Sequence record: PV730302.1
Origin: a phage
Length of the DNA stretch: 64,000 bases
Reading direction: 5' to 3' (one strand)
Numbering within the stretch: position 1 is the stretch's first letter; each line of letters starts with the position of its first letter. The position numbers and the translations under genes are program-made. Under the pieces are notes generated by a model that saw only the letters and a list, made by a program, of their open reading frames with translations, was not told where the DNA came from and did not search any database. Of the stretch, positions 1 through 11,455 are shown piece after piece.

Positions 1-2943
1 GATAAGTTATTTTGGAGAAATTTAGGTTACACCCCGAACAATAACTGGTTCGAAGAAAGATTTATTTCTCCTAATTCGTTTTATAAAATGCGTGTCGCTG
101 TAGCTGCTCAAGGATTTGAACAATCTGACTGGGTTTATACAGAAGAATTCGAGACATTTTCTACTAACGCGTATACCTTCGAGCATATGCGTGAATTCAC
201 TTTATCCAATAAATTCATTGAAGAAAAATTTACCAAAAATAACCAGAGTTACGTGGATTTTAATAGTGATGCCATTATGGCTTCTATGATGTCCGAAGAT
301 TTTACTTGGACTCCGGCGTATTCACATCTTTCTTCAATTTCCAATTATGTATTAAAGGCCGACCGCTTCCATGAGATTCAAGGAAGTATCCAGGCCGTTT
401 GTAAAGACCCTAATCGTTCTATTTTAATGGAGCTTGGTGGCGTACTTTACCTTTTAGAAAGATTCCAGAACACCGCTAAGGTATCTAACGATAAGGCCCA
501 GAACTGGCATTATATCCGTTTGTTTAATGATAGAGTAGGTAATCCGGTTTCACGTACGGCTCATTATCAAACAGATACAACAACTTATATTTTAGGATAC
601 GACCGCATATTTTACGGACGTAAATCAAGTGATATTCGTTGGTCTGCCGATGATGTACGTTTTAGCTCACAAGACGTGACATTTGCCAAAATTGGTAGTG
701 ATATCGACCTGGACTTCGAAATCGAAATTTTCGGTTCTTATGCCCGTTTACCATTAGCTATTTCTACTATCGCAGAAGCTATGTGTGCTTCGGATGATTT
801 TATTTACGTTGCGGCTCGTGACAGAGTTTATAAAGCAAAAACTACTGATGCCCCTATTGACACCGACCCGGGCTCTCCTACTTACGGTGAGAAAATATTT
901 GAAAGTGGCTATTCGACCATAACCGGTAACCCTAAAGCGGTTTGTTATAAGTTAGATTCTATCCAAGGAAATACCTTTGCCTTAATTACGGGTGAAGTTA
1001 AAGAAGAAAGAATGGACCCTACTAAAGAAGAAAACGTGGTTGATTCTGAATCTAAAGGTGTTTATTGGTTGGATGCCGAAACCGATACATGGACCAGAGT
1101 ATTTGGTAATACTGAAGAAGAGAGACGTCGTATTGAGCATGGCTATACTAGCATGTCTACCGATGGCGAAGAAATATTCTTTAGCTCAAGTAACTTCAAA
1201 TATGAAGTAGAAGTTGATAACGAATTACCTTTAGAATACCCTATTGTGGCCTCAGCGGTAAAATACGTTAAGGACGAACAGTGGATTCATGATAAACATT
1301 ATCTGATGATGAGCTTTAGAGCTAACAGTAAGTCAGATTTTAAAGAATTCAAACCGGGTCGAATGGCCTATTATGCTGAACCGTTCTTTAGTTGGTCTAG
1401 ACGCGACGGGACACGTTCTTGGATTACCACAAGTAACCATGCAATGGTTGTTTATAATGATGCCTTATACCAGAAAATTATTGATTTAAACAGTGGTTCT
1501 TCTCCTGAACGTATTATCCGTGAAATTTGGGATAAAGGCTTTTGTACCGTAACATGTCCTAATATCGAATTCAATGGATTTAAAAAATACTCTTCAGGTA
1601 TAATGATTCACAAATCATCAGGTGAATTGGTTGGATATTTCGAGTTCGACTACCGAGTTCGAGATGAAGTTAAAATAATTTGGAAGCCTAAAGAAATAAT
1701 GTTTACGGCTGAACTCCAAAACCAAGAGCATGAAATTCCATGGGCCCCTAAAGAGGAAACTGGTGAACAAGACCCTGATTTGCGTCCTTTATTGGTTAAA
1801 ATGGTTCCTGATAGTTATTTGCTTCAAGATTCTAACTTTGAAAAATTCTGCGAATATTATCTCCAGTTTATTAGTGATGGCTCCGGCACCCATTATAATA
1901 ATCTATTAAATCTTATTCGTAACCAATATCCTAGAGAAGAAGATGCATGGGAATACTTATGGTCTGAAATCTATAAACGCAATATCTATTTGTCTAAAGA
2001 AAAACGCGACGAAGTAGTTCGTTTCTTCCAAGCAAGACAATCGGATTTCTGGTCTACAAAAGGTACCGAAGCTTCATATAAATTCCTGTTTAAATTGCTT
2101 TATAACGAAGATGTTGAAATTGACATCGAGTCCAAGAACTCGATTGAATATGATATCATCGTAGAATCCGACAATATCAGTGAAGATATCGTAGGCCAAA
2201 CAATTTATACCCCTACAGGAAGAAGTAATGTTACTTATATAGAACGAAATTACAAAGATGGTAAATTGCAATGGCGTTTAACCATTCACAATCTTTTAGG
2301 CCGTTTTATAGTCGGACAAGAGATTAAATCTGAACGCACCTCATTTAAAGGTATGATAGTGCAGGGTGTACGCGGTAAAGAATTGTTAAGTAACAATATC
2401 GATTATATTAACCGCAACCGTTCTTATTATGTTATGACTATTAAATCCAACCTCCCTACTTCTCGATACCGTAATGACGTGTTGAGATTTGTCCATCCTG
2501 TAGGATTTGGTTTTATAGGGATTACGTTGCTTTCTATGTTTGTTAATGTCGGTTTGACATTAAAGCACACGGAAACCATTATTAATATACTTAAGAACTA
2601 TAAGTGGGACTCAGGTCTTCCATCCGAGTGGTACGATAGAGTTGCTGTAATCGGATTTGATGGTAATATAGAAAGAGACCCTAGAACAGGACTTCCGGTT
2701 TATAACGTTGGACCTAAAGCAGGCGAACCGTTCCCTATTCCTGTTGATTATGATGCAGAAAATGATTTCTCTGTATTCCAAGGTCAATTACCTCATGAAC
2801 GTATTAAAAAGCATAGTCCTTTATTTGACCAAAGTGCAGTAACATTTTCAAAATGGCGTGCTTTAGTTGATGACAGACTTAAAGCTGATATTGGAAACCC
2901 TAGAGACCCGCAAGACCCAACTCAGGTAAAAATTGATGATTAA
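1..2943 (+). CDS. gp7: Baseplate wedge initiator gp7, 5' end truncated by window edge
   Basis: Reading frame is open from nt 1 with no stop before the ATG at 88; large ORF immediately upstream of gp8-gp12 as in T4. Confidence 0.8.
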   Translation, partial: DKLFWRNLGYTPNNNWFEERFISPNSFYKMRVAVAAQGFEQSDWVYTEEFETFSTNAYTFEHMREFTLSNKFIEEKFTKNNQSYVDFNSDAIMASMMSEDFTWTPAYSHLSSISNYVLKADRFHEIQGSIQAVCKDPNRSILMELGGVLYLLERFQNTAKVSNDKAQNWHYIRLFNDRVGNPVSRTAHYQTDTTTYILGYDRIFYGRKSSDIRWSADDVRFSSQDVTFAKIGSDIDLDFEIEIFGSYARLPLAISTIAEAMCASDDFIYVAARDRVYKAKTTDAPIDTDPGSPTYGEKIFESGYSTITGNPKAVCYKLDSIQGNTFALITGEVKEERMDPTKEENVVDSESKGVYWLDAETDTWTRVFGNTEEERRRIEHGYTSMSTDGEEIFFSSSNFKYEVEVDNELPLEYPIVASAVKYVKDEQWIHDKHYLMMSFRANSKSDFKEFKPGRMAYYAEPFFSWSRRDGTRSWITTSNHAMVVYNDALYQKIIDLNSGSSPERIIREIWDKGFCTVTCPNIEFNGFKKYSSGIMIHKSSGELVGYFEFDYRVRDEVKIIWKPKEIMFTAELQNQEHEIPWAPKEETGEQDPDLRPLLVKMVPDSYLLQDSNFEKFCEYYLQFISDGSGTHYNNLLNLIRNQYPREEDAWEYLWSEIYKRNIYLSKEKRDEVVRFFQARQSDFWSTKGTEASYKFLFKLLYNEDVEIDIESKNSIEYDIIVESDNISEDIVGQTIYTPTGRSNVTYIERNYKDGKLQWRLTIHNLLGRFIVGQEIKSERTSFKGMIVQGVRGKELLSNNIDYINRNRSYYVMTIKSNLPTSRYRNDVLRFVHPVGFGFIGITLLSMFVNVGLTLKHTETIINILKNYKWDSGLPSEWYDRVAVIGFDGNIERDPRTGLPVYNVGPKAGEPFPIPVDYDAENDFSVFQGQLPHERIKKHSPLFDQSAVTFSKWRALVDDRLKADIGNPRDPQDPTQVKIDD

Positions 2944-6672: not shown

Positions 6673-7337
6673 TGACTTTAACAGAAATGAAAAGCGGGTT
6701 AAAATCCCGCCTTGCCGACTTTTTAGAATTTTCTTTTACAACTAATCAACCTGCCGCAGTGGCAGGTCAACGCCCTATTGGTGGTCCATCGGCAAACCAA
6801 ACCCAAAAAGGTGTTTATTACCCTACGGTCCAAAGTGCTATTGATGATATTGCTTTCCGTGCAGAACTTCCTGTCAATGCAGTGGTAACTACTACTGAAA
6901 ACAGGGCACCCGGCTTTATTCAACAATCAGATAAATTAACTTTCTCCGGCTCCATTTCTTCTGGTGGCGAATTAGGCGATACGGTTATTATTAAGGTATT
7001 CGGTTTGCCTGTTGAAGTTATTGTGGGTGATTCTTCGGTCCTGGTTGCTTCTAAAGTTAACGATGCTTTTATAAGCGCTATTGCCGATAGTTATATTTTG
7101 GCAGAAACGTCTATCGACCCTCTAGACCAGTCTACTTTAAACATTAAATATAACGACTACCAAAACCATATTTTTGAGCCATTTAAACAAGCAGGATGCA
7201 CCATTTCTCAGACTATAGTTCAACAGCCTCGTGCAGGTTATGGATACTGGGAATATTTAGGTTCTACTACAGAATCTATGACAGGTGGAACCGTAAATGG
7301 AACAACAACCTTATATCACTATAAGCGAGTAAGTTAA
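6672..7337 (+). CDS. gp11: Baseplate wedge subunit and tail pin gp11
   Basis: 221 aa; synteny gp10-gp11-gp12; start overlaps gp10 stop. Confidence 0.88.
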   Translation: MTLTEMKSGLKSRLADFLEFSFTTNQPAAVAGQRPIGGPSANQTQKGVYYPTVQSAIDDIAFRAELPVNAVVTTTENRAPGFIQQSDKLTFSGSISSGGELGDTVIIKVFGLPVEVIVGDSSVLVASKVNDAFISAIADSYILAETSIDPLDQSTLNIKYNDYQNHIFEPFKQAGCTISQTIVQQPRAGYGYWEYLGSTTESMTGGTVNGTTTLYHYKRVS

Positions 7338-8869
7338 TGTCTACAAATACACTAAAACACATAAGTGATAAATCAGAATTTAAAACATTCGACCCTACTG
7401 GGTCGAATTTTGACCCCTCTATTACTAATGTCCAGGATGCATTGGCGTCTATTTCCGCTATAGGTGTTACAGGTAATATACCTTCAGCTTCTGAAACAGA
7501 ACAGGGTATTATTAGATTAGCGACCCAACAAGAAGTTATTGATGGCACCGATACTTTCTCTGCAGTAACTCCGGCCACTTTAAAAGGCCGTTTAGATATT
7601 CCTACTCAAGCAACAGAAACTTATGTAGGTATCACCCGTTACGCCACTAATGCTGAAGCCATTGCCGGAACAGAAACCCAGGCTGCAATCGTAGCATCGT
7701 CTTTGAAAGCTACTATAGATTATACATTCACCAATCGTTTAGCCACAGAGAACACTACAGGCGTACTCAAGATTTCAACCCTGCCTGCTGCTCTAGCCGG
7801 TACAGATGATACGACGGCAATGACACCGCTGAAAACCGCCCAGGCAATTGGCGCTGCTACATCGGCATTACCAACTTATTCAAGTGCTACTCAAACTACT
7901 GAAGGTATTGTTAGAATCGCAACAAACGCTGAAGTGGCAAATGGTACATTGACTAATGGTGTGGCAATTTCTCCTTCTGGGTTAAAATCTTTAACTTCTA
8001 CCCAAGGACGAGCAGGTATTATTAGATTAGCCACTCCACAAGAAGCTTCTGCTGGCAGTGATTCTAATATAGCTTTATCTCCTTCAACTCTTCTTTCTCG
8101 TACCGGTACTACCGGAAGGTTGGGTGTTGTTAAATTATCGACTACGGTTGGTTCTGGTGATGGGAATACTGCATTGGCATATAATGCTAACGTTATTTCT
8201 ACCACAGGCGGCACCATTAATGGTACTTTAAACGTTAACGGTACTTTACGTCGCAATGGGCGTGATGTTGTTACTATCGACCAATTAAAAGATTCTGTCC
8301 CTATCGGTACTATTGTTATGTGGGGAGGCCAGATTAATAATATCCCTGCAGGTTGGGCTGTTTGTGATGGTGGTAACTCTGGTGAACAAGGATTCCGAAA
8401 TGTAGTTGGTAGTAAATGGGGTTCAACCGGCGCTCGTCCTGATTTCCGTGGATTATATCCTCGCGGTGCAAACCAGACTAACGACGGTGGATTAAGAGAA
8501 TGGGATGCCAACGTTAGAATTAGAGATGCCAAAGGTAATGATGCCAAAGGTAAACCTAAATTAGGCGTGGGTTGCGGTTCATATGGCCATGGCACTGTAC
8601 AAGCCCAGCAGCTTCGTTTCCATAAACACGCTGGTGGTTTTGGCGAACACGACAACGCAGGTGCATTTGGTAATACCGTTCGTTCCAACTTTGCAGGTAC
8701 TCGTAAAGGGCTGGACTGGGATAACCGTTCTTACTTTACAAACGAAGGATATGAAATTGACGGTTCAGGTTCACGAGATTCAAGAACTACTCTAAACAGC
8801 GAAGGGTTAGTTGGTAACGAAAACCGTCCTTGGACTATGTCCATCCTATTCATTATTAAAGTTGCTTAA
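7337..8869 (+). CDS. gp12: Short tail fiber gp12
   Basis: 510 aa with repeated GxxRxAT-type motifs (GIIRLATQQE, GITRYATNAEA, GIVRIATNAEV, GIIRLATPQEA) typical of T4 gp12. Confidence 0.9.
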   Translation: MSTNTLKHISDKSEFKTFDPTGSNFDPSITNVQDALASISAIGVTGNIPSASETEQGIIRLATQQEVIDGTDTFSAVTPATLKGRLDIPTQATETYVGITRYATNAEAIAGTETQAAIVASSLKATIDYTFTNRLATENTTGVLKISTLPAALAGTDDTTAMTPLKTAQAIGAATSALPTYSSATQTTEGIVRIATNAEVANGTLTNGVAISPSGLKSLTSTQGRAGIIRLATPQEASAGSDSNIALSPSTLLSRTGTTGRLGVVKLSTTVGSGDGNTALAYNANVISTTGGTINGTLNVNGTLRRNGRDVVTIDQLKDSVPIGTIVMWGGQINNIPAGWAVCDGGNSGEQGFRNVVGSKWGSTGARPDFRGLYPRGANQTNDGGLREWDANVRIRDAKGNDAKGKPKLGVGCGSYGHGTVQAQQLRFHKHAGGFGEHDNAGAFGNTVRSNFAGTRKGLDWDNRSYFTNEGYEIDGSGSRDSRTTLNSEGLVGNENRPWTMSILFIIKVA

Positions 8870-8878
8870 GGAAATAAA

Positions 8879-10468
8879 ATGATTGACAAACTGAGTATTA
8901 AAGAACTTCCGTTTGTCGATGGTGTACCCGATGCATCCCAAGAGCGTATCCGTTGGATACGCAATGGAGAATGTATTGAAGGAGCCACGACTAAATACGG
9001 TCACGACGGTAATTTGAATGCCCCTGCTTTAGGAGTACAAACCAACGTAGTTAGATTAGAAGAAAACAGTATAGCTTCTAAAGACAAAATTAACGAGCTT
9101 GTGGATAACGTTAATTTGATTAATGAAGCCCTAGATATTTCTACTGATACGGCGGTTATTCAGCAAATTGAAAAGAACCGTGTCGATATACTGGCTGTGG
9201 ATGAAAAGGCTTCCGAAACTAAACAAGAATTAGGTGACTTAACCGTTAATTTTAATTTTTTAGAAGAAGATGTAGGTTATTATGACCCGGCTTTAGACGG
9301 GACTTATCTAACCGTCAGAGAAAATATAAATCTTCTTAAATCTGAAATTGGTCATTATGCGAACCAGGATATAAACAGCCAACCGCTTCCTCCAGGTGAA
9401 ACTTCTGAAGCCACCGGCATGAAACGTCGCATTATGGATAATACCAGTGCTATTGTCGACCATTCACAACGTATAGATACCCTTGAAAAGAATTACGAAG
9501 ATTCTGATGTAGGGCAACTTGGGCTTAAGATTAACGAAATTCGTGAAGAACTCGGCCCTCATATCGATACCATAGGTAAACAACCGGCGTATACCAGGAT
9601 TTCCACTCTTGAAACTGCTGCTGTAAGCTTTAACGAATCAATAGATTCTATCAAAACCAGTATAGGTTTTAATAAAGGCCCTATTGATACAAGAGTAACC
9701 ACTCTGGAAACTAAAACTTCAACTTTAGAAAACACCGTTAATACCGGTTTGGTTCCTAGAGTTACTGCAGTGGAAACCGCTATCGGTACGGCAGATGCCC
9801 CTACTTCTATTAATGGTAGATTAGGTGGCTTACGTACCGATGTTAATGAACTAAAAACTATAGTAGGTGCTAGTTCGTCTGAAGGGCTTCGTTTCCAGGT
9901 TTCCGATATAGACCGTAAAATTGGTGCCGATGTAAGTCCGGCTGCGGGAACAATTAATAAACGTTTGAATGACCTTACGACTCAAGGTAATACTTCAGCC
10001 TCAACTATTCAGGATTTACAGGCTGAAATTGGTAATAACCAAACAGGTATTAAAGGTTCTATTCTTAAAATTACCAACCAAATTGAAGGAACAAACCCTA
10101 ACGGTAGTACTGTAGAAGAACGAGGGCTAATAAACTCTGTTAAAGGCCTTGAAGCTCAAATGCCTACTAAATTGAGTGACGCCCCTGCTGATGGTAAATT
10201 GTACGGACGTAAAGATGCGGCATGGGCTGAAGTTGTTGATGCAGGTACAGAAATAGCTGCAGTAAAAGCTTCTTTAGTAGTTACTGATGGTGAGGTTGAT
10301 GATTTAGGAACTCGTTTAACTGCGGCTGAAGGTAAAATCACTGCACTAGAAACTGAGTTGGCTAAACGCCCTCCTGTTGCTCCTGTGGCTGACGGACTTC
10401 CGTATGTTCTGGTTGATAACGCATGGGTACTATTGTCAGATTTTGTGACTTTAAACCCAGCACCGTAA
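8879..10468 (+). CDS. wac: Fibritin (whisker/neck fibre) Wac
   Basis: 529 aa, heptad-rich coiled coil with foldon-like C-terminus (DGLPYVLVDNAWVLLSDF); followed by rho-independent terminator. Confidence 0.85.
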   Translation: MIDKLSIKELPFVDGVPDASQERIRWIRNGECIEGATTKYGHDGNLNAPALGVQTNVVRLEENSIASKDKINELVDNVNLINEALDISTDTAVIQQIEKNRVDILAVDEKASETKQELGDLTVNFNFLEEDVGYYDPALDGTYLTVRENINLLKSEIGHYANQDINSQPLPPGETSEATGMKRRIMDNTSAIVDHSQRIDTLEKNYEDSDVGQLGLKINEIREELGPHIDTIGKQPAYTRISTLETAAVSFNESIDSIKTSIGFNKGPIDTRVTTLETKTSTLENTVNTGLVPRVTAVETAIGTADAPTSINGRLGGLRTDVNELKTIVGASSSEGLRFQVSDIDRKIGADVSPAAGTINKRLNDLTTQGNTSASTIQDLQAEIGNNQTGIKGSILKITNQIEGTNPNGSTVEERGLINSVKGLEAQMPTKLSDAPADGKLYGRKDAAWAEVVDAGTEIAAVKASLVVTDGEVDDLGTRLTAAEGKITALETELAKRPPVAPVADGLPYVLVDNAWVLLSDFVTLNPAP

Positions 10469-10470
10469 TA

Positions 10471-10492
10471 AAAGGGCTTCGGCCCTTTTTTG
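10471..10492 (+). terminator. Rho-independent terminator after wac
   Basis: AGGGC-ttcg-GCCCT hairpin followed by TTTTTT. Confidence 0.6.
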
Positions 10493-10493
10493 C

Positions 10494-10501
10494 TATAAAT
10501 A
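10494..10501 (+). promoter_or_regulatory. T4-type late promoter TATAAATA (gp13)
   Basis: Exact TATAAATA immediately after the wac terminator and upstream of gp13. Confidence 0.6.
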
Positions 10502-10522: not shown

Positions 10523-11455
10523 ATGGCAAGTGAATCATTTAACCCTAAGCAACTCAAGGACGCTATCCTGCGCCGCCTGGGTGCGCCGATTACAAATATT
10601 GAAGTAACTACAGACCAAGTATATGATTGCATCCAGCGAGCCCTAGAGCTCTACGGTGAGTACCATTATAACGGGTATAACAAAGGTTATCAGGCTTTTT
10701 ATATCGGCCATGACGATGAAGAAAAATTCCGTAATGGGGTATTTGACCTTAAAGGCCGTAATATATTTGCAGTGACACAAATTTTGAGAACCAATGTAGG
10801 TTCTTTAACATCTATGGATGGGCAAGCGACTTATCCGTGGTTTACTGATTTTGTATTAGGCTTAGCAGGTATTAATGGCGGGCTAGGGTCTTCGTGTAAC
10901 AGTTTTGGACCTAATGCCTTCGGCGCCGACCTTGGTTATTTTACCCAACTAATGCAATATCGTTCTATGATGCAGGACCTTTTGGTTCCACTACCTGATT
11001 ATTGGTATAACGATGCCACCGAACAGTTGAAGGTAATGGGTAACTTTGTTAAAGGCGATTTTATTGTAATTGAAGTTTATACTCGCTCTTTTAATGGGGT
11101 TGATTCTATGGTAGGAAATACCGTAGGATACGGTTATGCTTCAGCTTGTGGTGAAGATGCATGGAGCCCGGGTGCTATTTGGGATAATCCGGCGCGTCGT
11201 ATTTCTGGTATGCGTGTAGGTGAGGACCTTGGTCTTCAAGATGGTGCATATAATAACCGTTGGGTCAAAGATTATGCCACGGCATTGGTTAAAGAAGTCA
11301 ATGGTAATATTTTAGCCAAACACCAAGGCATGCAACTTGCAGGTGGAACCACCGTAGATGGCATTCGATTGATTGAAGAAGCTCGTTTAGAAAAAGAACG
11401 ACTTCGCGAGGAATTAGATTTACTCGACCCACCAACACCTATTTTAATTGGATAA
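10523..11455 (+). CDS. gp13: Neck protein gp13
   Basis: 310 aa; synteny; TATAAATA late promoter at 10494-10501. Confidence 0.88.

Follow-up and report, generated by a model that had tools for sequence, protein, structure and literature searches.

A predicted JS98-type fibritin with an internal and a terminal foldon-like motif on either side of a short coiled-coil spacer

The window, by which we mean the whole 64,000-nucleotide stretch of phage DNA that was analysed (PV730302.1), contains a wac gene whose product carries two foldon-like segments near its C-terminus. The foldon, the autonomous trimerisation domain of T4 fibritin, is able to form a stable homotrimer by itself. It is a fold of about 27 aa in which a β-hairpin follows an extended Pro-containing segment (PMC12644675), and trimer folding of the T4 and JS98 fibritins proceeds via small foldon motifs only (PMC3797505). 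Is the internal segment a relative of the foldon, and how did one chain come to hold two copies? An earlier note, made from the sequence alone, had described a Wac longer than that of T4, with a terminal foldon-like sequence, a second one about 60 residues upstream and a short coiled coil between them, and had proposed a module duplication that could affect trimerisation or whisker architecture.

The gene had been named correctly: phmmer matched Wac to T4 fibritin (2bsg, also 3j2o) with E=2e-74, aa 6-428 against T4 residues 5-430, and the protein matched PHROG 1056 'fibritin neck whisker' with E=3e-183. Pfam Fibritin_C (PF07921) was detected on the whole protein with 86.1 bits at aa 373-453. 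The homology to T4 fibritin (PDB 1AA0, 1AVY, 1RFO, 2BSG) thus covers aa 6-428, and the gene occupies the same position in both phages. At 529 aa, Wac is indeed longer than the T4 protein, which has 487 aa and a single foldon, and to which the window Wac adds an internal hairpin and a spacer. The open reading frames at 7337-8869, 8879-10468 and 10523-11455 correspond to gene 12, wac and gene 13, an order that is the same in the annotated records of IME08, JS98, 04086, Bp7 and T4. Gene 12 encodes the short tail fibre and gene 13 a neck protein. The wac DNA was 94-97% identical to that of the Dhakavirus phages 04086, C6, IME08 and JS98-C3 (95% for JS98-C3), and the window was 97% identical to Dhakavirus C6, AnYang and fDHCT2 across 25 kb. 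On sequence grounds, we identify the gene as the wac of a Dhakavirus, a JS98-like T4-type coliphage. By homology and from the published account (PMC3797505), its product would be a parallel trimeric segmented coiled coil at the phage neck.

The features of the locus are collected in Table 1. Directly 3' of the wac stop codon lies a stem-loop with a folding energy of -14 kcal/mol (z = -3.4, strand folding), which is a probable intrinsic terminator bounding wac; a simple terminator scan did not flag this stem-loop. The octamer TATAAATA that follows it matches the T4 late-promoter consensus and was taken as a putative late promoter.

Table 1. Positions of wac, its C-terminal modules and the adjacent 3' elements in the window
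Feature	Residues	Sequence	Position	Strand	Basis or remark
wac, fibritin (neck whisker), both foldon-like motifs included	529 aa		8879..10468	+	ORF listing
Last helix of T4-homologous shaft	aa 414-426	ERGLINSVKGLEA	10118..10156	+	directly upstream of internal motif
Internal foldon-like segment	aa 434-454	DAPADGKLYGRKDAAWAEVVD	10178..10240	+	alignment, Pfam, phmmer, AlphaFold2, Foldseek
Coiled-coil spacer	aa 455-497	AGTEIAAVKASLVVTDGEVDDLGTRLTAAEGKITALETELAKR	10241..10369	+	heptad pattern, AlphaFold2
Terminal foldon	aa 498-529	PPVAPVADGLPYVLVDNAWVLLSDFVTLNPAP	10370..10465	+	alignment, phmmer, AlphaFold2, Foldseek
wac stop codon		TAA	10466-10468	+	
Stem-loop, UUCG loop then U run			10465..10493	+	sequence read directly; folding
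T4 late-promoter consensus match		TATAAATA	10494..10501	+	read directly; upstream of gene 13 (10523..11455)

A single-chain AlphaFold2 model, computed from a shallow alignment of 16 sequences by a method whose training included many foldon structures, showed a hairpin, a 41-residue helix and a second hairpin with a short helix (mean pLDDT 79.6). The hairpins, at aa 442-451 and 509-518, each come after AP/PPVAP, and the shaft-end helix occupies residues 15-27 of the model. Superposition on 1rfo, 2ww7 and 1nay gave 1.0-1.3 Å in Foldseek. The best PDB matches were T4 fibritin fragments, isolated foldons and foldon fusions, along with the JBD30 receptor-binding trimer for the internal motif; the Foldseek E-values all exceeded 0.1, owing to the tiny size of the domain, and the single-motif phmmer E-values were marginal (0.003 to 0.5). 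A search of all real reading frames in the 64-kb window found no further motif of the foldon kind.

The terminal segment (aa 501-525, APVADGLPYVLVDNAWVLLSDFVTL; DGLPYVLVDNAWVLLSDF is present exactly at aa 505-522, nt 10391-10444) scored 58 against the T4 foldon (27 aa) in a Smith-Waterman alignment with BLOSUM62, where 2000 shuffles of the whole Wac gave a mean of 23.5, an sd of 3.7 and a maximum of 42. phmmer matched the terminal module to T4 fibritin M (1avy, E=0.0027) and then to many foldon fusion constructs; in the phmmer alignment of Wac to T4 fibritin, T4 440-484 pair with Wac aa 476-523. That Wac ends in a foldon-like sequence was therefore confirmed. In the AlphaFold2 model, a Pro-rich lead-in precedes a β-hairpin (Y509-V512 / A515-L518), with a short helix (519-525) at the C-terminal end, and the predicted hairpin superposed at 1.0-1.7 Å on foldon structures, with an rmsd of 1.1 Å over 26 for 1rfo, and of 1.7 Å over 66 columns at a TM(target) of 0.80 for 1avy. 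Pfam Fibritin_C gave no detection on the terminal motif alone. After the Trp the terminal copy continues as VLLSDFV, compared to VLLSTFL in T4; the hairpin reads YVLVDNAW in Dhakavirus instead of the YVRKDGEW of T4, and the Pro-rich lead-in is one residue longer. The positions of E461/R471, the intersubunit salt-bridge pair of T4, are V and L, and the terminal interface may for this reason differ from that of T4. Alignment and predicted fold mark the terminal copy as equivalent to the T4 foldon.

The internal segment, in which PADGKLYGRKDAAWAEVVD is present exactly (aa 436-454, nt 10184-10240), scored 55 against the T4 foldon, again above the shuffled maximum, and the best score elsewhere in Wac was 24. 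On its own, it passed Pfam Fibritin_C with 22.3 bits (profile positions 68-91 of 93) at a gathering cut-off of 21 bits, and phmmer matched it to 8rk3 (E=0.0048) and to T4 fibritin 1aa0 (E=0.011). AlphaFold2 predicted a β-hairpin (Y442-K445 / A448-E451, pLDDT about 82-86), which Foldseek superposed on JBD30 chain 8rk3_E with an rmsd of 1.5 Å over 24 residues. The two outcomes that the earlier note had named as refuting a second, internal segment, no predicted hairpin and no significant similarity on alignment, were hence both contradicted. Its distance estimate of about 60 residues was close, as the conserved Trp residues W449 and W516 lie 67 residues apart, and the stretch 10180-10468 that it singled out begins at the internal motif and ends with the stop codon. 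Upstream of the motif, T4 and every relative examined share the EERGL... block at the shaft end. Downstream, the internal copy is without the hydrophobic tail VLLSTFL that follows the Trp in T4; it has AEVVDAG instead, runs straight into the spacer helix and, lacking this tail, may not trimerise on its own. Asp434 and Arg444 align with the T4 salt-bridge pair.

Could the internal resemblance be due to chance or amino-acid composition, so that there is no second motif? The motif is short (~20 residues) and its individual database E-values are marginal, but none of the 2000 shuffles reached its score, it exceeds the Pfam gathering threshold, a hairpin is predicted for it by AlphaFold2, and its position is unchanged in all relatives examined but DK-13; we regard this reading as refuted and its probability as negligible. 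A stronger competitor holds that the segment is a generic fibre repeat of the form DAPxDGxxYxRKxxxW, of DUF2793 type, which serves as a joint, a hinge or a tail-fibre-binding surface and leaves trimerisation to the terminal foldon alone. In the PDB, the sequence that the internal motif matches best, ahead of T4 fibritin, is the JBD30 receptor-binding protein gp54 (8RK3/8RK4, a DUF2793 protein according to the deposition), a siphophage baseplate protein otherwise unrelated to the window Wac and solved as a trimer, with SDAPSDGKAYARESGAWTEL at residues 122-147. There the motif starts the 'knee' after the thigh domain (residues 1-118), at a mid-chain domain junction and not at the chain end. Pfam DUF2793 (PF10983) was not among the window Wac matches at E<=1, and the resemblance to 8rk3 is at motif level only. 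The same repeat was present at 1-6 per protein, mostly internally, in 111 metagenomic fibre-like proteins obtained by a profile search (a single-sequence search with the C-terminal 130 aa gave 2), and 5-6 copies stand in tandem in the fibritins of EcS1 and Gravdalen. By its sequence pattern, the internal copy is to be placed in this widespread fibre motif, and its missing tail speaks for the generic reading. Against a purely generic role speak the Pfam Fibritin_C match of the segment alone and the retention of Asp434 and Arg444 at the T4 salt-bridge positions. We consider a generic joint without a trimerising function a real possibility, if a somewhat less probable one; the segment could be both a joint and a second trimer node, and this reading overlaps with our preferred explanation of a second foldon-like node.

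The suggestion of a module duplication stood in part. Two homologous foldon-like copies do exist, both related to the T4 foldon and each preceded by a coiled-coil segment, and the JS98 and T4 types could be converted into each other by a single deletion or duplication (Letarov and Krisch, PMC3797505). A recent, lineage-specific tandem duplication in this phage is, however, highly improbable and in our view refuted by the comparisons. The two copies are identical at only 7/19 positions, with a mutual alignment score of 32 (P about 0.02) against 55-58 for each with T4. The terminal copy is identical at 10-12/19 positions to the terminal foldons of T4, CIP9 and PEi20, and the internal copy at 10-13/19 to the internal copies of other phages. 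Both motifs were present in every Dhakavirus Wac examined, in Gaprivervirus (VR7) and in Kanagawavirus (CIP9, PEi20), and the layout was found in at least 75 phage records of these three genera. The only tandem DNA repeat in the window's wac is a 9-bp repeat in the Pro-linker. From the spread over three genera and the grouping of like with like, any duplication would predate Dhaka-, Gapriver- and Kanagawavirus, and the two-foldon layout is an old, conserved architecture and not an event particular to this phage.

Copy number differs among related fibritins. T4 has one foldon, and the three genera above have two. The fibritins of Enterobacter phage ZX14, Escherichia phage EcS1 and Erwinia phage Gravdalen are products of the same gene and have the EERG... 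shaft end followed by a DAPxDG...W motif at the same position. ZX14 Wac (455 aa) ends in one foldon, whose upstream part corresponds to the internal context of CIP9 and whose hairpin and tail correspond to the CIP9 terminal foldon; it seems to be a hybrid, resembling an internal/terminal crossover relative to CIP9. The repeats of EcS1 and Gravdalen follow each other without a coiled-coil spacer. A chimeric origin was also considered for the T4 foldon, from an internal N-half (APxDGxxYxRKD..W) and a terminal C-half (WVLLSxF), but was ruled out as unnecessary: the PEi20 terminal foldon is identical to that of T4 at 16/19 positions over its whole length, and the terminal class alone therefore accounts for the T4 foldon.

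The combination of two T4-like foldon motifs with a coiled-coil spacer whose length varies has been described as the JS98-type fibritin (Letarov and Krisch, 2013; PMC3797505, citing Latypov et al., 2007). The two-foldon architecture is thus already known, having been published between 2007 and 2013 (PMC3797505), and the window Wac shows the same two T4-like motifs and variable-length spacer. The Wac proteins of JS98 (AAU29287.1) and JS98-C3 (ABW89019.1) agree with it in gene, genus and architecture, with the internal motif at aa 434; the terminal foldon ends ...AWVLLSDFVTLN(P/S)AP in the JS98-type proteins and in the window, and the window Wac differs only in its spacer allele.

The spacer comprises 40 aa with 10/11 hydrophobic a/d positions in one continuous register of ~5.5 unbroken heptads, and AlphaFold2 predicted one helix at aa 455-495 (pLDDT block means 82-97, above 90 at aa 460-489), so the short coiled coil described between the segments was found as well. 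Phages 04086 and JS98-C3 have 26 aa, a difference of exactly two heptads, and in JS98, CLB_P2 and IME08 the spacer is much longer (Wac 751-799 aa), which makes 40 aa a short allele. Dhakavirus Wac ranges from 514 to 799 aa owing to the spacer, and among two-copy fibritins the spacer length at protein level varies more than tenfold. Spacers were compared anchored on the motifs, as a MAFFT DNA alignment put the long gap at an arbitrary place within the internal foldon. Relative to IME08 and JS98, the deletion junction is ...VTDG(K/E)V | (A/D)DLGTRL.... Long alleles such as that of IME08 contain a 93-bp tandem array, which is absent from the window. No record of the phage collection contained the exact C-terminal 117 aa (best 81%), and an exact-sequence look-up in a collection of 15 billion proteins did not find the Wac protein.

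Taken together, we consider it highly probable that this Wac is a JS98-type fibritin, with a T4-like shaft, an internal foldon-like node, a coiled coil and a genuine C-terminal foldon, for which we propose a role in assembly. Residues 1-430 are T4-like, an N-terminal neck-attachment domain followed by the segmented coiled-coil shaft. At the distal end, the hairpin node (aa 434-454) would sit on the last shaft helix and be followed by the 40-residue coiled coil, a Pro-rich linker and the foldon (~498-525). As for T4, the C-terminal foldon may act as a fast trimerisation nucleus that brings three chains into register, after which the coiled coil would zip up in the C- to N-terminal direction. 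A second three-fold β-node may be formed by the internal hairpin, where the chains passing from the distal extension into the main shaft would be set in register again. The spacer would set the reach of the distal tip and appears to be plastic, through in-frame, heptad-preserving deletions and gain or loss of repeat units, with both foldon nodes kept. In T4, the C-terminal part of fibritin touches the long tail fibre close to the knee (PMC3797505). Trimer formation by each node, the folding order and an effect on tail-fibre handling are what we infer from these comparisons, and an effect of the two-foldon layout on trimerisation or whisker architecture, as the earlier note had put forward, is plausible.

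The discovery value is small because earlier publications already cover the JS98-like two-foldon architecture with its variable spacer. Foldon tags are widely used to trimerise vaccine antigens. Three natural variants could be useful in protein engineering: a foldon-like node inside the chain, which can run on into a coiled coil; a terminal foldon with hydrophobic residues at the T4 salt-bridge positions; and tandem arrays of the motif. The spacer series (26 aa, 40 aa, proteins of 751-799 aa) offers a natural experiment relating whisker reach to tail-fibre assembly and environmental sensing. In a wider and more speculative reading, which we think rather unlikely, the foldon hairpin would be a reusable, recombination-prone unit of Tevenvirinae fibritins, and the internal copy an independent trimerisation and registration node. 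If so, the 40-residue spacer of the window would be a new allele in the series, the main shaft would fold whatever befalls the distal module, and the whisker tip would be free to evolve, with a length tunable to control long tail fibre retraction.

Judged by its sequence, the 529-codon ORF encodes fibritin (Wac), which forms the trimeric neck whiskers of T4-type phages. Residues 6-428 aligned with residues 5-430 of T4 fibritin (2bsg, 3j2o; phmmer, E=2e-74), the protein matched PHROG 1056 'fibritin neck whisker' (E=3e-183), and Pfam Fibritin_C scored 86.1 bits (cut-off 21). Gene order around wac, flanked by gene 12 and genes 13, 14, and 15, was identical to that of annotated relatives and T4. 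The Dhakavirus phages C6, AnYang, and fDHCT2 were 97% identical to the window over 25 kb; wac DNA was 94-97% identical to that of 04086, C6, IME08, and JS98-C3, one stretch near the 3' end excepted.

Coordinates of features in and around wac
Feature	Window (nt)	Wac (aa)	Strand	Source or remark
gene 12	7337-8869			flanks wac
wac ORF, 529 codons	8879..10468		+	ORF listing; 10180-10468 is the 3' end
genes 13, 14, 15	10523 onward			flank wac
predicted helix		414-426		AlphaFold2
internal foldon-like segment, DAPADGKLYGRKDAAWAEVVD	10178-10240	434-454	+	
predicted β-hairpin, internal segment		Y442-K445 / A448-E451		AlphaFold2
predicted continuous helix, spacer		455-495		AlphaFold2; pLDDT block means 82-97, >90 over aa 460-489
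terminal foldon segment, APVADGLPYVLVDNAWVLLSDFVTL		501-525	+	
predicted second β-hairpin, terminal segment		Y509-V512 / A515-L518		AlphaFold2
predicted short helix		519-525		AlphaFold2
9-bp unit CTCCTGTGG, 2.2 copies	10371-10390			
stem-loop	10465-10493			directly 3' of wac stop
TATAAATA	10494-10501			after stem-loop, upstream of gene 13
antisense ORF, 158 codons	10156-10632		-	across wac end and gene 13 start

The stem-loop behind wac (UUCG tetraloop plus U run; -14 kcal/mol, z -3.4) was not flagged by a simple terminator scan, and the TATAAATA that follows it matches the T4 late-promoter consensus. The antisense ORF is very probably spurious, because its Ser/Thr/Ala-rich product is a mirror of the coding strand. 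Annotation of wac varies: in IME08 (HM071924.1) the CDS (relative's sequence L001, 1432-3900) has a start annotated 23 codons upstream that overlaps gene 12, ESCO10 (OM386655.1) carries the label 'phospholipase' and CLB_P2 (OL770107.1) 'hypothetical protein', and the JS98-C3 record (EU224420.1) is filed under Tequatrovirus, its gene being 95% identical to Dhakavirus wac.

The earlier note had described a Wac longer than that of T4, with an internal foldon-like segment upstream of the terminal one. Both peptides it quoted were found, exactly, in Wac, which has 529 aa vs 487 aa in T4, and the conserved Trp residues of the two segments lie 67 residues apart. In the alignment to the T4 foldon that it had suggested (Smith-Waterman, 27-residue query), the internal segment scored 55 and the terminal segment 58, above the maximum of 42 among 2000 shuffles of whole Wac (best scores: mean 23.5, sd 3.7); elsewhere in real Wac the best score was 24. 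Pfam Fibritin_C detected the internal segment alone (22.3 bits, above the gathering threshold; profile positions 68-91 of 93), and gave no detection on the terminal segment alone. The terminal module retrieved T4 fibritin M (1avy, E=0.0027; with so short a motif, E-values of database searches using one motif are marginal) and many foldon fusion constructs in phmmer, and in the full-length phmmer alignment it paired (aa 476-523) with the T4 foldon region (440-484). Its proline-rich lead-in PPVAPVA, encoded by the 9-bp repeat, is one residue longer than the T4 counterpart. No further motifs of the foldon kind were found in real reading frames of the 64-kb window.

Residues 400-529 were modelled as one chain with AlphaFold2 (mean pLDDT 79.6). 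The model, built on a shallow 16-sequence alignment and likely biased towards the foldon fold, predicted the β-hairpin on which the earlier note had made its internal segment depend. Foldseek against the PDB gave weak E-values, the domain being tiny, in a list headed by T4 fibritin fragments and foldons: 1avy (TM normalised to target 0.80, rmsd 1.7 Å over 66 columns) and 1rfo, 2ww7, and 1nay (rmsd 1.0-1.3 Å over 24-27 residues). High in the list as well, and corresponding to the internal motif, was a baseplate chain of phage JBD30, 8rk3_E (54% identity and rmsd 1.5 Å over 24 residues). The coiled coil proposed between the segments was likewise borne out, with one unbroken heptad register, hydrophobic residues at 10/11 a/d positions, and a single predicted helix.

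The two-foldon architecture is thus a correct finding that is already published, because Letarov and Krisch (Ecol Evol 2013, PMC3797505), citing Latypov et al. (2007) on JS98-C3 Wac as source, describe a 'JS98-type' fibritin with two T4-like foldon motifs, separated by a spacer whose length varies and whose pattern is that of a coiled coil; they consider a change between T4 and JS98 types possible via a single deletion or duplication. In the relatives examined, Dhakavirus Wac length differed solely through the spacer: 514 aa in 04086, 515 in JS98-C3, 529 in the window and Bp7, 751 in JS98, 772 in CLB_P2, and 799 in IME08. The 40-residue spacer of the window corresponds to the first and last parts of the long IME08/JS98 spacer, joined between ...VTDG(K/E)V and (A/D)DLGTRLTAAEGK..., and 04086 and JS98-C3 have a 26-residue spacer with another junction (between ...KASLL and EAEGKITALE...). 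The latter is exactly two heptads shorter, and therefore both alleles preserve the phase of the coiled coil. The long alleles hold a 93-bp (31-residue) tandem array within the spacer (IME08 wac, L001 3330-3768), absent from the window, which probably drives the length changes; its copy number seems to vary among IME08, JS98, and CLB_P2. We regard the window Wac as a new allele of this known polymorphism, because its junction differs, no record of the phage collection holds its exact C-terminus (best 81% over 117 aa), and an exact look-up of the protein in a large protein collection found none.

The 'module duplication' of the earlier note stands in so far as the modules are homologous, and fails as a recent event. 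Both motifs occupied equivalent positions in every Dhakavirus Wac examined, and the layout recurred in Gaprivervirus VR7 and in Kanagawavirus CIP9 and PEi20; in DK-13, the second Gaprivervirus examined, a motif search found the terminal copy only. Queried with the 117 C-terminal residues, tblastn hit 105 phage records, 75 of them with at least 80% of the query covered at one place. Over 19 comparable positions, the two window copies shared 7 identities; the terminal copy matched T4 at 10 positions and the terminal copies of CIP9 and PEi20 at 12 (PEi20 vs T4: 16), and the internal copy matched those of JS98, VR7, CIP9, and EcS1 at 10-13. Since copies match their own class across genera better than each other, we assign them to old, distinct classes, with the terminal copy corresponding to the T4 foldon; these values rule out that the module was duplicated recently in this phage.

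The motif DAPxDGxxYxRKxxxW, to which the internal copy belongs, occurred one to six times, mostly internally and often every 24-28 residues, in each of 111 metagenomic and genomic proteins obtained by a profile search; many of these proteins carried the Pfam label Fibritin_C, some DUF2793. Escherichia phage EcS1 (LC371242.1; L011 1259-3082) and Erwinia phage Gravdalen (PQ464594.1; L014 1259-3013) differ from the window in having five or six tandem foldon-like copies, ~25-30 residues apart at the fibritin end without a coiled-coil spacer. Of these copies, the last (EAPKDGKAYVRKDGAWVD...) resembles T4 most. Enterobacter phage ZX14 (PP236086.1; L013 1262-2629), of the same genus as two-foldon phage CIP9 (L009 1262-2908), has a 455-aa Wac in which the only foldon occupies the internal position. 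The sequence upstream of the hairpin (EERGVVNSVKQLETNKISDAP) matches the context of the CIP9 internal copy, and the hairpin with its tail (RDGQAYVRV..WVLLSTFL) matches the CIP9 terminal foldon. Recombination between two foldon copies would yield such a protein, and it looks like a natural deletion of that origin. In the otherwise unrelated metagenomic protein P0002 (202 aa), IPDAPADGRLYGRKDAAWAEVADPG precedes a coiled coil whose KITALET-type heptads closely resemble the window spacer, a hint that internal foldon and coiled coil travel as a unit from one fibre gene to another.

The main alternative for the internal motif is that it serves solely as a structural joint or binding surface and not as an autonomous nucleus. 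In its favour, the motif has no hydrophobic VLLSTFL tail and is closer to a generic fibre repeat than to the T4 foldon. The residues that occupy the places of the T4 intersubunit salt-bridge pair Glu461-Arg471 are presumably Asp434/Arg444 in the internal copy and Val/Leu in the terminal one. Among PDB sequences, the internal segment best matched gp54 of JBD30 (E=0.0048), a receptor-binding protein deposited under the name DUF2793. In the solved trimer of gp54 the motif spans residues 122-147, where the 'knee' begins immediately behind the thigh domain (1-118), and this sets a structural precedent for a hairpin of this kind within a trimeric fibre and not at the tip. In T4 and JS98 fibritins, small foldon motifs alone are used for trimer folding, and the C-terminal part of T4 fibritin contacts the long tail fibre near the knee (PMC3797505).

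The T4-like shaft, internal hairpin motif, coiled-coil spacer, and terminal foldon were all conserved, and the spacer was length-polymorphic. By analogy with T4 and in line with the cited work, the terminal foldon would nucleate trimerisation and set the chain register. The internal hairpins would build a second three-fold node at which the distal extension meets the main shaft, and spacer length may determine how far the whisker tip, which handles the long tail fibres, can reach.
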